A stretch of DNA of 63,522 nt, counting the filler, from Reclinomonas americana ATCC 50394 (Eukaryota), in assembly GCA_048213135.1 (NCBI GenBank). It is 11 parts of 11 records of this genome, joined end to end, with 100 filler letters (N's around TTAATTAATTAA, not from the genome) between each part and the next. Parts side by side here need not be neighbours in the genome. Positions count along the whole stretch, not along the records: positions 1 to 5,868 come from AFZH01016625.1; 10 more parts are not named here. One strand, given 5' to 3'. This document shows positions 838 through 5,867 of the stretch, piece after piece. Each line of letters starts with the position of its first letter. The first letter of the stretch is position 1. Below the pieces are notes generated by a model. It was given only the letters and a program-made list of their open reading frames with translations. It did no database searches and had not been told where the DNA came from. Both the position numbers and the translations under genes were made by a program.

Positions 838-3800
838 TCAATCAGTTGCGCTCGCGTCGTCGTCTTCATCATCAGCAGGGTTCCAATCATCGTCATCGTC
901 GAAAGACTCTTCGCTCTCGTCCTCCTCATCCTCTTCGTCCCCCTCGTCGGTCACTTCCTCAAGGCCGACGCCACCCACAGCACCAAGCGAGTCTGTAAAG
1001 TCGGGCAAGACAGTGCCAAGTACGCGCTCCACACGCCCGCGTGTGCCTCTACGAATCAAATAAATTGCTCTGGCGGACACACGAGCGGCGAATGCAGCGC
1101 CAAAAGCCATGCGCCCGAAGTTTATCATTTGATACGAAGCAGGGGCCACGAGATCAGCCTGTGCATCAAGAGGCACTTCTTTTCCACTCTCCAGAGACCA
1201 CACTCGCACTTTCCTATCTTGACTCCCACTCACAATGTGCTGACCATTTGGAGTGACAACGACAGATACCACTGCACTAGTGTGTCCCTCCAGCCGTCGT
1301 ACTTCTGTCCCACTAACCAGTGACCACACCCGAACGGTCTTGTCAACACTTCCACTCACAACATGGTGACCATCGGGAGTGACGGCGACAGATTGTACAC
1401 GTCCATTGTGACCCTCCAGTAGTTGCACTTCTTCTCCACTCGTTAAAGACCACACACACAGCTTTGTGTCGCATCCAACCACAACATGCTGACAATCGGG
1501 AGTAACTGCAAAAGAGTGAATCCCCAGTTCGTGCTTCGCGAACCTTCGCACTTCGTGTCCACTGGCCAGCGACCAAATCCGCACAGTCTCGTCATCGCCT
1601 CGGCTTACAACGTACTGACCATCGGGAGCGACGACGACAGAAGTCACCTGTTCACTATGTCCCTCAAATCGATGAACCTCATCTCCACTCGCCAGTGACC
1701 AGACTCGCACTGTCTTGTCCTCACTGCCACTCAGAATGTGCTCACCATCAGATGTCACTGCCACTGCATTCACCCACTCGGTGTGTCCCTCCAACCGGCG
1801 CACCTCTTCGCCAGTTGCCAAAGACCACACTCGTACTGTGTTGTCGCTACCCCCACTAACAACGTACAGACCATCAGGAAACAGGACAGGCACCGACGAC
1901 AATTCAGCCACCTTCCACATTTCTTCTCCAGTGGCAACCGACCACATTCTCATCGTTCCGTCATTGCTCGCAGTCACAACATGCTCACCACCGAGGGTGA
2001 ATGCAACAGAATGTACAAAATCGGAGTGTCCCCCCAACCGTCGCACTTGCTCCTCAACCACCACAGACCACACTCGCACTGTACTGTCCTCACTGCCACT
2101 CATTAGTTTCTAGATACAACGTGCAACCCATCGGGGGTGACAGCGACAGAGTTTACCTGGTTGGTGTGACCCTGCAATACTGCCATTTCGTCTCCACTCG
2201 CAAGTGACCACACGCGTACCGTCCAATCCCAACTCCCACTCACTACATACCGACTATCGGGAGTGACAGCGACACACTTCACTGGTGCAGTGTGACCCTC
2301 CAACCGTCGCACTTCTTTTCCAGTCGCCAGTGACCACACTCGTACGGTCTTGTCATGACCTCCACTCACCACATAGTGACCATCGGGAGTGACGGCGACG
2401 GACCACACTATACCAGAGTGCCCCTCCAACCGTCGTACATCCTCTCCACTAGTCAGTGACCACACTCGCACAGTGCTGTCCTCGCTACCACTCACAATGT
2501 GACGATTATCAGGAGTGACAGCAACAGACCACACCCACGAAGTGTGTCCAATCAAGCGACAAATTTCACCTCCTAATTCTAGTGACCACACACGGACTGT
2601 CTCGTCAGAACTGCCACTCACAATAAAACGACCGTGGGACATGACGGCTACAGACCATACCCATTCAGTGCGTCCCATCAATTGTCGCACCTCCTTTCCA
2701 CTCACAAGCGACCACAATCGCACCGTGCAGTCCTGACTTGCACTCACTATATGCTTACAATCGGGAGTGACTGCGACGGAAGTCACTATGTGAGAGTGCC
2801 CAACTATTGGCTTCCTTGGCCACCTCACGCCAGTCACATCCGCTCCTCTGAAATCCACCTCCTTCGCATACGCCAAGCACACATTCACCCCTCGCAAATC
2901 CGCCCTCCTCCACACCGTCCTGTGCATCACCGCATCCCTCAAGTCCGCACCCCTCACTCGCACACCCGACAGATCCCGCCCACTGAACGCCACTTGCGCC
3001 ACACACAACACCGTCGCTGCATTCGCTGCAGCCGTCACCAATCGCTCCTCGTCCACCTCTCGCGACATCTCAATCACCTCCCAGAGTCTCGCCTGCAGCC
3101 GAGGAGACCGTCGCACCACCTCGGCCATCTGCTCCACCAACGATGGTCGATCATTCAGCAATCGCACTGCCAACACATGATGCTGCACATCATCCACCGT
3201 CAATCTCCTCTCCTCATCCCACGTCTCCCACGCAAACACATGACGTGCCACACAGTGCTCTAGCAACGACAGATGCACGAATCCCCACTGATCCGTCCCA
3301 TACCGTCGCACAATCGGACAACACACTCGCACGTGCTGGTTCTTGTGCCCGAGAAATTTGTCAAACGGTCCCTCATCAACTTGCCCACCGCCACGCGGAG
3401 CGCCGCCAAAGTCATCCTCACTTGATTGACTCTCCGTCACAGACACTCGCACCACATTTCTCTCATGCATCAACCGCGCCAGTCCCTCACAGAACGAGAG
3501 ACACGTCTCCTCACTCGGCACACGACCCGCACCGAGACGCGTCTGTCTCTCCTGCTCCCTCTCAATCCACTGTCGAATGAATCGGTCAAACACATCACAT
3601 CGAGTCGGTCGCTGCACTCCACTCGCCACCAACTGCGGCAACACACGAGCCACCACTGCCAGCAGGAATGGATTCGATACCAGTGCATCCAGTCCATGCA
3701 CACTCTTCAGTGCACGAATGTACTCCTCGGCAGTCGACCATCGCACTTCTCCTTCATCATCACCGCCAACTTGCACCAGTCGCTCAAAGTACTCCTCAAT

Positions 3801-5867
3801 CTGTTCCTTGTTGAACGGTGCAATGTGTCGCTCCGTCAACTGCTGCATGCACAACTGTCCACGTGCATCCACCGGTGCAAAGTACCGTCGATACTGCGTC
3901 ACCCCACCCAGAGCCGTCAGTGCGTAATCGCCGCGACAGGTGATAATCACCTTCACATCGCGGCACACATCAAGCTGGTTCTTGACAAACAGATTCACAC
4001 CACGGTACAACTCGTCGTACCCGTCAAGCAACAACAGCAGTGGTTCCTCCTTCAACCGTCGCACATCCGACTCCAGTCCCAACTCGGGTGACAGTCGCTC
4101 CAGTGCCTCCTCCAACAGCCACTCGTCGGCATTGCGCAGAGTACCAAGAGGAACACGCACAGGCACCCGTCTGCTCTCTCTCGACTGCCATTGTCGCCAT
4201 GCTCTGTCAGTCAGCACCGACATGGTGGTGGTCTTGCCGGCTCCGCTGTTGCCGAACAGCACCAGCACACAATGGGTGGTGTTGGCGTCGGAGAGGAATG
4301 CATCCACCTCCGTCAACAGATCAGCCATCTTGTCTCTTGAGGAGACGTCACGATCACGTGAGCATAGCAGTGGCACATACATCTGCATGTCCTTGCGCAC
4401 ACTCTCATCGTGCTGGTAGAAGAAAAGTTCACGGCGACACAGAGCGTGTATTCCTGCGACACATGGCAGTCAGCAGCCATATCCGATGCAAGTGGTCATG
4501 GAAAACACTGCACAGATGGATCACCTGGACGCAAGCTCAACCGGAAGTCATTCAGCACCTCTGCCAACAGGCGGTATCGATGTACGGCTTCCTGTTCCTG
4601 ATCTTGCTGTCGCATATCTCGTAACAAAAGCTTAACTTGCTCGTGCCAAGCAGGAAGTGGCAAGTAACCGTGCTTCTGGATTCCGTCAATTAGAGCCCGC
4701 ACAAATGGGGACGTCATGTCTGGAATTCCGACAAGGGGCTTCGTGAGAGCAACAATCAACAGATAGACCACAACGCGCCACTCACCACCCTCGTAAGCAT
4801 CCCAGCCGTGCCAACTCGCAAATCCGACGAAAACATTGTCGGCTAAAACACTCTCATCAATCGAAGCGACAGTCTGCGGCTGTGAGCTGCGAACGGATGC
4901 ACAGAGGAACGCGTAAGACTTCGCAATACGCGCCCCTCCGACAATATTCGCTCACGCACCTGGCGATGGAACGACAGCAGTTCATCAGCAACACCACCAC
5001 TGTTCGCCTTGACGTCTTTCGCCGCAGTTGATGCATGCAGTAATTGATGAGCTTCAGTGATTTTTCACCGTTCAGCTGTACAAATACTTTTGTCAACACA
5101 GCTTTCCACAAAAAAATACAGCGTTATGCCAACATGTACACTCACCAAGCTTGCTCTGGGTAATCCATTGACATCGCTCGGGAGGAGCAACAAGTCTCGT
5201 TGACTGGCCAGTCCGTGGCCAGAAAAGAACAACAGAACGCACTCGCACTCTTCGTTCACCTCGTCATGCACGAAGCCATCAAAAACCGAGTGCATGCGAT
5301 CGCCCTTCACATCGACAAACATGCAGACGTGGAATTCAACATTCTCAAACACAGGCTGTAACAGAGCTGTGCGACACAGAGAGTGTGACAAGGCAGAATG
5401 CATGAACGATGAATAGATGTTGCTGGGCATGCAATCGCGCACCGACGTCATGTGGCGGGTTCGCCCAAACCGTCCCTCTCCCTCGACATCGATATCGCAT
5501 GAGTTGCCGATGAGCAATGCAACGCGTTTGTGTTTCCTGCACGCACAGTTGAGCACATGCAAGATATCTCTGTCTCCCATATTTCTCAACATATACGCAC
5601 CTTCCACTCCCTCTACTCGACTGCTGCACCACGCCAAGTGTCACACGGACAACGAGATGAGTGGATGAGTTGATGCCGAGTGATTTCAACTTCAACACAT
5701 TCGCATCCTCCAAGTCAAACGGCATTGGCTTCTCCACTCCCACAATCTCCATCGCCTCATCTCCACTCTTCGCACGCAGCAAGCATGTGGCCTCGCGCAG
5801 CAAATCCGCAAGAGTGGACATGGCCGACATGCCCTCCACCACCACCGACAGTGACGAATCATGCGTC
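838..5867 (-). pseudogene. NLR/STAND-like protein: ubiquitin-like + caspase-like (peptidase C14) + NACHT + pentapeptide repeats + ~13 WD40 repeats + acidic tail; two frameshifts; 5' end cut by gap
   Basis: KRVALLIGNS..NPPHD, LFFSGHG (His 5215-5217), LLMNCCR (Cys 4974-4976), SPFVRAL; GT-AG intron 4454-4524 joins this in frame to the NACHT ORF (GNSGAGKT, LLLLDGYDE, KVIITCR, NPFLL); ADLRDA/ADLRGV pentapeptides; 42-aa GH..WS repeats. Frameshifts at ~5498 and 2102-2115. Confidence 0.85.
1170..2810 (-). repeat. Coding tandem array of ~126-bp WD40 units with high internal similarity
   Basis: ~13 units of consensus EVRRLEGHTxxVxSVAVTPDGxHVVSGSxDxTVRVWSLxSG. Confidence 0.9.

Follow-up and report, generated by a model that had tools for sequence, protein, structure and literature searches.

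A candidate intron-containing gene of Reclinomonas americana predicted to join a caspase-fold protease to NACHT and WD40 modules

Introduction

In the Apaf-1/caspase-9 apoptosome and the NLRC4/caspase-1 inflammasome, an oligomerising STAND NTPase with sensor repeats activates a caspase-fold protease. All-in-one caspase-NACHT/WD40 cell-death switches appear so far to have been described mainly in bacteria. A locus of the eukaryote Reclinomonas americana raises the question of whether protease, NTPase and sensor are encoded there by a single gene, and whether that gene is intact. It lies at one end of the window, by which we mean the whole 63,522-nt stretch of DNA analysed. The reading we favour, with a probability of about 0.6, is a nuclear intron-containing gene for an all-in-one NLR-like STAND protein predicted to consist of an N-terminal region, a C14 protease, NACHT, pentapeptide and WD40 modules and an acidic tail.

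Results

Six candidate introns give a single open frame

The ORF pieces at 5065-5640, 4857-5123, 4496-4951 and 2103-4469 are separate as they stand. Six short candidate GT-AG introns (64-87 nt) join them in a single open frame of 1110 codons on the minus strand (838-5866). Four of these introns are obligatory; the other two (5442-5356 and 4785-4720) contain no stop and keep the frame. The preliminary description had claimed five GT-AG introns and a single spliced frame in which C14 precedes NACHT, pentapeptide and WD40 modules; the predicted splicing bears out the joining, but the count rises to six. The intron it had placed at 4454-4524 is the sixth candidate, a GT-AG intron with matching phases. 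The features, in order of transcription, are as follows.

5869..5968, no strand: linker (N44-TTAATTAATTAA-N44), truncating the gene at its 5' end
838-5866, minus: gene span in the spliced-frame model
5601..5866, minus: exon 1, partial, open to the contig edge, 88 residues
5537..5600, minus: candidate intron 1, 64 nt, GTGCGT...CAG, obligatory (frame change)
5443..5536, minus: exon 2, C14 first strand by profile alignment, KRVALLIGNS at 5529-5500
5356..5442, minus: candidate intron 2, 87 nt, GTGCGC...CAG, in-frame and stop-free; C14 score rises on its removal
5146..5355, minus: exon 3, C14 p20 core (Pfam Peptidase_C14), catalytic His codon 5217-5215 in FSGHG
5076..5145, minus: candidate intron 3, 70 nt, GTGAGT...CAG, obligatory
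4960..5075, minus: exon 4, catalytic Cys codon 4976-4974, the second Cys of NCCRS, aligned with the Cys of bacterial D-A-C-R
4887..4959, minus: candidate intron 4, 73 nt, GTGCGT...CAG, obligatory
4786..4886, minus: exon 5, p10-like strand by profile alignment (…FVGFASWHGWDAYEG)
4720..4785, minus: candidate intron 5, 66 nt, GTGAGT...CAG, in-frame and stop-free (spliced frame and C14 profile)
4525..4719, minus: exon 6, end of C14 (SPFVRAL 4711-4691; profile match to 4664) and helical linker
4454..4524, minus: candidate intron 6, 71 nt, GTGATC...CAG, with the in-frame TGA 4498-4496 inside
2115..4453, minus: exon 7, first part, pre-NACHT helix to the midpoint of WD40 repeat 6 (five and a half repeats), from Pfam, alignments and repeat register
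4253-4227, minus: Walker A, G-x4-GK-T, conserved with relatives
4037-4011, minus: Walker B, hhhhDGYDE, conserved with relatives
Within exon 7, minus: helical/winged-helix region between NACHT and the pentapeptide-like repeats
About 3000-2850, minus: pentapeptide-like repeats, aligned with the repeat region of relatives
2101..2114, minus: 14-nt insertion within WD40 repeat 6, from repeat spacing and frame
838..2100, minus: exon 7 continued in the shifted frame (ORF, Pfam), second half of repeat 6, repeats 7-13, acidic tail, stop 840-838

On the minus strand, 5866-4400 can be crossed with only four GT-AG introns of 55-90 nt, as against six to seven on the opposite strand, and 0 of 200 dinucleotide shuffles crossed it with four or fewer. 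A pyruvate carboxylase gene in the window, with 62% identity at best to its matches, provided six homology-defined introns of about 55-70 nt (one of about 240), with donors GTGCGT, GTGTGT, GTACGC and GTCAGT, acceptors CAG or TAG, and a +5 G in all. The candidate introns match them in size and ends.

These features bear on whether the contig is an assembly chimera, with C14 and NACHT parts from different loci, or a bacterial contaminant. The assembly is fragmented (10 linkers in 63.5 kb), the linker at 59410-59509 either marks a mis-join or conceals half or more of the pyruvate carboxylase gene, and the architecture is typical of cyanobacteria according to the available text of PMC3501461. However, no gap interrupts the contig (1-5868) that holds both the C14 exons and the NACHT exon, and the coding sequence needs spliceosomal-type introns in the style of the housekeeping gene, where a bacterial gene would be one ORF. 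We consider either origin highly improbable.

The 5' end of the gene is missing

The ORF of exon 1 is open up to the contig edge and the gene runs into the linker at 5869, so that the true N-terminus is missing. The linkers are gaps inside a scaffold, as an identical linker (61122-61221) is spanned by the pyruvate carboxylase gene. A probable ubiquitin-like domain had been proposed for the truncated exon 1 region, and it failed every test. The 88 residues gave no ubiquitin-family match in Pfam at E up to 1, nothing in the PDB at E up to 10 and nothing in the Atlas, and the AlphaFold model (strand-helix-strand-strand, pLDDT 45.3) was too low in confidence for a fold search. A ubiquitin-like beta-grasp assignment is therefore not supported.

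A predicted caspase-fold domain with an unusual residue before the catalytic Cys

The preliminary description had staked its caspase-fold domain on a C14 profile match, and the unspliced His-bearing ORF (5065-5640) gave one to Pfam Peptidase_C14 (PF00656) at 31.8 bits (E 1.5e-7, cut-off 21.4). The same ORF had no relative among 1.84 billion representatives. The spliced product was aligned to a profile that we built from 30 proteobacterial C14 domains, a home-made profile and hence a weaker test than a curated one. It matched as one domain end to end (positions 1-187 of 220, 45.0 bits). The score was 33.1 bits with introns 2 and 5 both kept and 45.0 bits with both removed, while none of 200 shuffles exceeded 1.5. 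The alignment gives the complete C14 order of first strand, His loop, Cys loop and p10-like strand plus helix. His167 (in GHG) and, 57 residues beyond it, Cys224 (in N-C-C-R) each fall in a column that holds the same residue in 29 of the 30 bacterial domains. FSGHG, NCCRS and SPFVRAL lie where they had been placed, and in the bacterial profile they correspond to the His, Cys and p10-like segments. From the predicted sequence, a complete caspase-fold C14 domain with a His/Cys dyad is present, divided among five exons.

The position two residues before the catalytic Cys, which belongs to the S1 pocket, is Gln in caspases and Asp in metacaspases. Here it is Asn, as the earlier description had remarked, against Asp in 30 of 30 aligned bacterial domains (D-A-C-R). 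Owing to this difference the specificity of the protease, or its activity itself, may differ.

The NACHT module and pentapeptide-like stretch have fungal and Mycoavidus relatives

Pfam NACHT (PF05729) matches at 4268-3780 with 34.5 bits (cut-off 26.7). AlphaFold modelled the NACHT-bearing part of exon 7 with pLDDT 70.5, and Foldseek found 63 PDB matches to this model at E <=0.001; among the matches listed, the top ones were NLRP2, NLRP14, NLRC4 and NOD2 (E ~7e-8), and NAIP chains were also present. The predicted module resembles the NACHT modules of animal NLRs. The pentapeptide-like stretch scores 18.3 bits against Pfam Pentapeptide (PF00805), just below the cut-off of 20.2, and aligns with the repeat region of relatives. 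Of the four profiles expected for the predicted protein, Pfam detected Peptidase_C14, NACHT and WD40, but Pentapeptide stayed below its cut-off.

A 540-aa query gave 13 relatives at E <=0.001, the best at 1.9e-33 over 92% of its length, and the homology to NACHT-pentapeptide-WD40 proteins sets in ahead of the P-loop and reaches as far as the pentapeptide stretch. With WD40 repeats following, the gene fits the NACHT-pentapeptide-WD40 NLR-like family. The gene shares with the NACHT-PPR-WD40 proteins of Mortierellomycota and Mycoavidus (L001, L002, L004 and P0002) a region of 25-33% identity from the pre-NACHT helix to the pentapeptide repeats, and the motif AAANA(I/A)T ahead of those repeats. 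Among bacteria, relatives were found only at Mycoavidus-labelled loci. With the NACHT-PPR-WD40 receptors reported, in the accessible part of a preprint, as common to both groups (10.1101/2021.12.02.471044), this bears out the link to Mortierella and Mycoavidus suggested earlier. The phylogeny, in contrast, places the gene outside: in a tree of 14 rows its product is a lone long branch (length 1.5) beside a Mortierellomycota/Mycoavidus clade supported at 99/99. Those proteins carry an N-terminal ARM_5 where the present gene has C14. On both grounds membership of that clade was rejected, although homology holds. The preliminary description had inferred a receptor family; no paralog was found in the window.

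One fused gene or two

The fusion of protease and NACHT hinges on intron 6, which contains the in-frame TGA at 4498-4496. The locus could instead hold two adjacent genes on the same strand, a C14 gene ending at that TGA and a NACHT-pentapeptide-WD40 gene starting at Met 4388. In favour of two genes, the intron 6 donor (GTGATC) is the weakest of the set and lacks the +5 G of all other donors examined, including the other five of this gene. Some relatives have almost no N-terminal extension: in P0007 and P0010, Walker A already occurs at residue 66-88, while metagenome ORFs begin about 100 residues ahead of the match. The 27 open codons before the first Met are not improbable by chance. Against the fused gene, too, none of the NACHT relatives retrieved carries C14 (0/6 N-termini scanned, 0/4 genome loci and 0 hits among 822 ORFs of 17 loci).

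However, the distance from TGA to Met is only about 105 nt, the acceptor (TCGCAG) and 71-nt length of intron 6 fit the other introns, and the phases across it match exactly. Moreover, the alignments to P0004, P0006 and P0010 begin 8-11 residues upstream of the first Met, which falls inside a conserved helix opposite an internal Leu or Gln of these relatives, and no in-frame ATG lies upstream. The upstream extension of these alignments indicates that coding continues 5' of the Met. We therefore regard two genes as distinctly unlikely and retain the single spliced gene.

A frame break within the WD40 repeats

The WD40 region comprises six plus eight matched stretches in Pfam (191.7 and 226.3 bits), from which we count 13 repeats, spaced in a 42-aa register, from 2810 to about 1159. 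These suffice for two propellers. Mean identity between repeats is 57% and the variation is concentrated at a few columns; sites that vary at the same place in each repeat may form a binding surface.

The frameshift reported in the preliminary description is real in the assembly. It lies in repeat 6, where a 14-nt insertion (2101-2114) sets the repeat anchors 140 nt apart rather than the usual 126, shifts the frame and brings in a TAA stop (2105-2103) with an overlapping ATG. The inserted sequence occurs once in the window. The protein encoded by the assembled sequence ends after five and a half WD repeats; the 423 codons that follow the break remain open and match WD40 (226 bits). The insertion points to a very recent pseudogene or allele, or to an assembly error.

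If the insertion is a true mutation, the architecture is real and the gene is a decaying pseudogene that has lost its working receptor. In favour of this, the insertion as assembled introduces a stop and disrupts a propeller blade rather than falling between domains, and an Asp-to-Asn change adjoins the catalytic Cys. The open, WD40-scoring codons after the break and the intact catalytic and P-loop motifs speak against it and imply that inactivation, if it occurred, is very recent. An artefact of assembly or allele is plausible too, in the form of a 14-nt error within a tandem array of 126-nt repeats. Decay is possible, though we doubt it. Equally tentative is the view that the gene is expressed and the frameshift an artefact, in which case R. 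americana, a non-fungal eukaryote, would have a functional 'apoptosome' in a single chain; a caspase-NLR of bacterial type would have been acquired, would have gained introns and would have been kept as an immune or cell-death switch.

Discussion

Cyanobacterial metacaspase (orthocaspase)-NACHT-Pentapeptide-WD40 proteins, described in 2012 (Asplund-Samuelsson et al., PMC3501461), have the same four-module order in the available text of that paper, a likeness of architecture only. The newness implied in the preliminary description was therefore overstated. The present gene differs from the cyanobacterial ones in being eukaryotic, in its six spliceosomal-type candidate introns, in having at least 88 extra residues before the protease and in having Asn for Asp. 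The eukaryotic protease-NLR fusions that we found reported, in the accessible parts of 10.1101/2021.06.03.446900 and PMC9815663, are fungal HET-Q2-like proteins (CHAT or S8 protease-NOD-repeats), often encoded beside gasdermin genes. They too are eukaryotic, with a protease effector in the same chain rather than recruited by an adaptor, and proximity activation is the mechanism proposed there, as we propose it here. Their proteases are CHAT or S8, however, whereas that of the present gene matches Peptidase_C14, with neither CHAT (at E up to 1) nor S8 reported in its Pfam scan. No gasdermin family was found among 98 ORFs of at least 150 aa elsewhere in the window (local context 5.9 kb plus gaps), and a HET-Q2-like protease-NLR with a gasdermin partner was rejected. 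Given the Mortierellomycota/Mycoavidus chassis, the cyanobacterial metacaspase versions and the fungal CHAT/S8 protease-NLRs already known, the gene belongs to a known kind, as a highly divergent member from a eukaryote, and is possibly a pseudogene.

The gene resembles Apaf-1/caspase-9 and NLRC4/caspase-1 in combining a STAND NTPase with sensor repeats (WD40 in Apaf-1). In those systems the protease is recruited, whereas here it is fused, and the NTPase of Apaf-1 is NB-ARC, whereas that of the present gene is NACHT. The Pfam scan gave no CARD or other death-fold adaptor, NB-ARC is absent from the nine Pfam families listed for the gene, and NACHT is above its cut-off; an Apaf-1-type apoptosome was rejected on these grounds.

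If its C14, NACHT, pentapeptide and WD40 modules are all genuine, this eukaryotic gene would broaden the picture of C14 proteases in eukaryotes. According to the available text of a 2017 review (PMC5756287), among C14 proteases without p10 only the prokaryotic ones have extra domains, the eukaryotic ones characterised to date being the p20 domain alone. Such a gene would also provide a specific instance in which an architecture of bacterial conflict systems works, or worked until recently, in a eukaryotic nucleus. The present copy, truncated at its start and frameshifted, is of limited value in this respect. If functional, it would be a surviving case of the all-in-one architecture from which adaptor-based apoptosomes and inflammasomes have been proposed to descend; the extra regulatory domain at its N-terminus and an S1 pocket lined by Asn would then confer a cleavage specificity unlike those of caspases and metacaspases.

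By analogy with Apaf-1/caspase-9, NLRC4/caspase-1 and the bacterial and fungal protease-NLRs, ligand-driven oligomerisation of NACHT leading to proximity activation of the fused protease is the likely mechanism. The WD40 propellers would keep the NACHT module closed until a ligand is bound; upon nucleotide exchange the NACHT modules would assemble in a ring, which would gather the N-terminal protease domains and activate them by induced proximity. The activated protease would then cut a substrate, resulting in cell death or immune signalling. Such a gene would offer a simple adaptor-free system for proximity activation of a caspase-fold protease. Were protease and NACHT encoded by two genes, their products might still act as partners.

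Gene structure and candidate introns

The gene lies on the minus strand of the first contig (1-5868), where it abuts the linker at 5869-5968, and its coding sequence is spread over a series of stop-to-stop open reading frames (ORFs). Six GT-AG introns, all with CAG acceptors, unite these ORFs into a single 1110-codon frame, which is closed by a TAA (2105-2103).

Stop-to-stop ORFs and candidate introns of the gene
838-2109, minus strand, ORF
2103-4469, minus strand, ORF
4496-4951, minus strand, ORF
4857-5123, minus strand, ORF
5065-5640, minus strand, ORF
5345-5920, minus strand, ORF
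5600-5537, minus strand, intron 1, 64 nt, donor GTGCGT
5442-5356, minus strand, intron 2, 87 nt, donor GTGCGC
5145-5076, minus strand, intron 3, 70 nt, donor GTGAGT
4959-4887, minus strand, intron 4, 73 nt, donor GTGCGT
4785-4720, minus strand, intron 5, 66 nt, donor GTGAGT
4524-4454, minus strand, intron 6, 71 nt, donor GTGATC

Introns 1, 3, 4, and 6 are required (each changes the frame or skips a stop); introns 2 and 5 keep the frame and contain no stop. In a control analysis we determined the fewest GT-AG introns of 55-90 nt that permit an open frame over 5866-4400. The real strand was crossed with four introns and the opposite strand with six to seven. None of 200 dinucleotide-preserving shuffles was crossed with four or fewer; five introns sufficed in 8, 6-11 were needed in 183, and 9 were uncrossable. 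Six introns of a pyruvate carboxylase gene in the window, assigned by homology, are mostly ~55-70 nt in length with donors GTGCGT, GTGTGT, GTACGC, and GTCAGT and CAG or TAG acceptors, and in these features the candidate introns look like real introns of the organism.

As the gene frame remains open up to the contig edge (5866), the start codon and an N-terminal stretch fall in the gap. When four N-terminal pieces were used as tblastn queries against the window, only self matches were returned. Just past the gap, 5969-6662 is of low complexity with three-base periodicity on both strands. The minus strand carries a Glu/Gln/Pro-rich ORF with ATGATG at the gap edge as its end, and the plus strand carries a Pro/Ala/Val-rich ORF. 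This region, which gave no Pfam match, could be the missing 5' end of the gene or part of a divergent neighbor.

The C14 protease domain

The ORF at 5065-5640 matched Pfam Peptidase_C14 with 31.8 bits (cut-off 21.4, E 1.5e-7). A second profile was built from the 30 best Peptidase_C14 matches, which were aligned, in 201 sampled Pseudomonadota genomes (78 with a match). Against the product lacking all six introns this profile gave 45.0 bits in a single domain, with residues 92-281 on positions 1-187 of 220, versus 33.1 bits in two fragments when introns 2 and 5 were retained. The top score among 200 shuffles was 1.5 bits. The central observation of the preliminary description, a caspase-like domain joined by short introns to NACHT and WD40 modules, is correct and well above chance level.

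In the alignment KRVALLIGNS forms the first strand, G-H-G the His loop, and FASWHGWDAYEG...SPFVRAL the p10-like part, and N-C-C-R lies opposite the bacterial D-A-C-R. The matching columns of the bacterial domains hold His in 29/30, Cys in 29/30, and Asp in 30/30, an invariance of Asp that is valid for this sample only, the top-scoring subfamily of one phylum. His167 (codon 5217-5215) and Cys224 (codon 4976-4974), spaced 57 residues apart, align to the His and Cys columns, so the catalytic His/Cys dyad of this complete C14 domain is present. Asn replaces the Asp two positions N-terminal of Cys224, which suggests a cleavage preference differing from that of the bacterial relatives or a lower activity.

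Phmmer with the His-bearing ORF gave no match at E ≤0.001 among 1.84 billion representatives. By sequence, the His-bearing piece had one weak match in the PDB (an ancestral caspase-3/6/7, E 0.74), and the p10 piece had chance-level matches only (a sulfatase and eS19). The sole NCBIfam match was caspase_w_EACC1 (16.1 bits versus a cut-off of 140), and PADLOC gave no meaningful match.

The ubiquitin-like domain proposed in the preliminary description found no support. The 88 residues ahead of the protease gave no ubiquitin-family Pfam match at E up to 1, no PDB match at E up to 10, and no usable Atlas match. Single-sequence AlphaFold modeled this piece with a pLDDT of 45.3 in a strand-helix-strand-strand order, which is compatible with a partial beta-grasp but proves nothing. 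The N-terminal region is thus best described as a truncated fold of no assigned class.

The NACHT, pentapeptide-like, and WD40 regions

The first 540 residues of ORF 2103-4469 matched Pfam NACHT with 34.5 bits (cut-off 26.7), Pentapeptide scored 18.3 bits, just below its cut-off of 20.2, and the two large ORFs gave WD40 scores of 191.7 and 226.3 bits. Both nucleotide-binding motifs are normal, and the NACHT region has a run of conserved positions in common with its relatives.

Nucleotide-binding motifs
4253-4227, minus strand, Walker A
4037-4011, minus strand, Walker B

An AlphaFold model of the NACHT region made from 12 aligned sequences had a mean pLDDT of 70.5. Foldseek gave 63 PDB matches to the model at E ≤0.001, the top ones being NLRP2, NLRP14, NLRC4, and NOD2 (E ~7e-8, TM 0.31-0.43 on the query). 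The P-loop is intact, and the modeled fold is NLR-like.

Thirteen WD40 repeats follow one another in a strict register of 42 residues (126 nt). The 11 units compared have a mean identity of 57% and their differences cluster in a few columns, the pattern expected of a binding surface, which these columns may mark. WD repeat 6 contains 14 additional bases (2101-2114), which place its anchors 140 nt apart versus 126 nt elsewhere, shift the frame, and introduce a TAA that overlaps an ATG in the frame downstream (TAATG). In the assembly the gene therefore reads as a pair of abutting ORFs with the break within a propeller blade. The insert sequence has no second occurrence within the window. It was also considered as a tiny intron, a reading rejected as no GT-AG choice brings the frame back. 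Because the 423 codons beyond the insert remain open and encode clean WD40 repeats, the break is either very recent or an artifact of tandem-array assembly.

Probable fusion of the protease to NACHT

All modules, that is, a complete C14 domain, a P-loop NACHT, a pentapeptide-like linker, and WD40 repeats for two propellers, lie in one splice-compatible frame. Fusion of the protease to NACHT rests on splicing of intron 6, the donor of which (GTGATC) lacks the +5 G present in 11/11 other donors examined. The rival reading, for which this departure counts, is two genes: the TGA at 4498-4496 would close a protease gene, and Met 4388 would begin a separate NACHT gene. However, such genes would be separated by ~105 nt, the splice phases fit exactly, and the frame upstream of Met 4388 contains no ATG. 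Moreover, the alignments of three related proteins (P0004, P0006, and P0010) start 8-11 residues upstream of this Met, which itself aligns to internal Leu/Gln positions in a conserved helix. On these grounds we put the probability of a protease-NACHT fusion at roughly three in four.

If the fused protein acts by analogy with Apaf-1, NLRC4, and the bacterial and fungal protease-NLRs, the WD40 propellers would hold the NTPase closed pending ligand, nucleotide exchange would lead to ring formation, and the ring would gather and thereby activate the fused protease domains, which could then cleave a putative executioner substrate. An all-in-one apoptosome-like receptor, as the preliminary description had it, is a reasonable though tentative reading.

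Known architectures and relatives

The architecture itself was previously known from cyanobacteria. For bacteria, Asplund-Samuelsson et al. 2012 (PMC3501461) describe a 'widely distributed Metacaspase-NACHT-WD40' and also a cyanobacterial variant in which a pentapeptide domain separates NACHT from WD40; the domain order of this variant is exactly that of the present gene. A preprint (10.1101/2021.12.02.471044) dealing with gene transfer in early-diverging fungi describes NACHT-PPR-WD40 receptors as common to Mortierellomycota and Mycoavidus. Peptidase_C14 is absent from the NLR N-terminal domain list of Clave et al. (10.1101/2021.06.03.446900) and Wojciechowski et al. and also from the table of Dyrka et al. 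2014 (PMC4986451). A 2017 review (PMC5756287) states that, among p10-less C14 proteases, extra domains occur in prokaryotic ones only. Among the open-access papers searched, none described a C14-NACHT-WD40 fusion from a eukaryote.

Searches with the NACHT-to-pentapeptide region retrieved 13 longer proteins of 22-30% identity, one of them from Haplosporangium (Mortierellomycota) and two from EukProt; among proteins of similar length the NACHT region had one weak match only. The prokaryote genome collection contained four related loci (3/4 labeled Mycoavidus) and the metagenome collection 13 (26-33% identity); no match came from a plasmid collection searched by tblastn with the NACHT region. Ten of the 13 metagenome loci (L041-L048, L051, and L052) came from contigs of one metagenome record series. 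In most of them the ORF is uninterrupted, about 1250-1380 aa long, and short at its N-terminus, so a family may have expanded within one organism there.

The N-terminal domains of the relatives were ARM_5 in protein P0002 and three Mycoavidus loci, TIR_2 in P0003, and pentapeptide plus a coiled coil in P0011; three others had none that was recognizable. Pfam detected C14 in 0/6 proteins and 0/4 loci, and our C14 profile had no match in 822 ORFs of 17 loci. Six long C14-bearing Pseudomonadota ORFs were considered as bacterial C14-NACHT analogs and rejected: C14 was C-terminal in 6/6, and none had similarity to the NACHT region of the window. In a maximum-likelihood tree of 14 rows (made without P0005, P0012, P0013, P0014, L003, and the metagenome loci) the window protein formed a lone long branch outside both the Mortierella/Mycoavidus clade (99/99) and the EukProt pair (97/97). 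The gene is best classed with the protease-NACHT-repeat proteins, as a highly divergent eukaryotic member with introns that is present here as a truncated and frameshifted copy.

Scaffold gaps and other genes of the window

Ten identical 100-base linkers (44 N + TTAATTAATTAA + 44 N) partition the window, and a further run of 671 N occupies 7593-8263.

Linkers
5869-5968, 9807-9906, 14174-14273, 21573-21672, 27536-27635
33940-34039, 35590-35689, 42113-42212, 59410-59509, 61122-61221

Other features
59510-62312, minus strand, pyruvate carboxylase, at least seven exons, matching residues 46-637 of a 1180-aa homolog
58444-59085, plus strand, DnaJ ORF
42161-46531, plus strand, WD40-packed open frame of 1456 codons (WD40 301.7 bits), beginning at a scaffold gap
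47860-54254, plus strand, RIH (43 bits) and RIH_assoc (57.4 bits) exons, IP3/ryanodine-receptor-like calcium channel gene
34187-35011, minus strand, aldehyde dehydrogenase
26613-27152, minus strand, GINS Sld5
25195-25818, plus strand, GDP-fucose O-fucosyltransferase domain
17004-18362, minus strand, ankyrin repeats
58099-58228, plus strand, U6atac minor-spliceosomal snRNA, 34.9 bits (gathering score 33), full model length

Because the pyruvate carboxylase gene continues over the linker at 61122-61221 (tblastn query residues 119-266 versus 263-331 on either side), the linkers appear to be gaps within a scaffold and adjacent pieces real neighbors. A further ~540 residues of this enzyme are absent beyond the linker at 59410-59509, and the DnaJ ORF is found where they were expected, so this gap is large or a mis-join. 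The best identity of a pyruvate carboxylase exon was 62%, with bacteria, animals, fungi, and algae intermixed among the top matches. For the WD40-packed frame at 42161-46531, neither its first 300 residues nor the ORF upstream of the gap gave a NACHT or pentapeptide signal, so a second NLR is not supported here. The U6atac match indicates a minor spliceosome in the organism.
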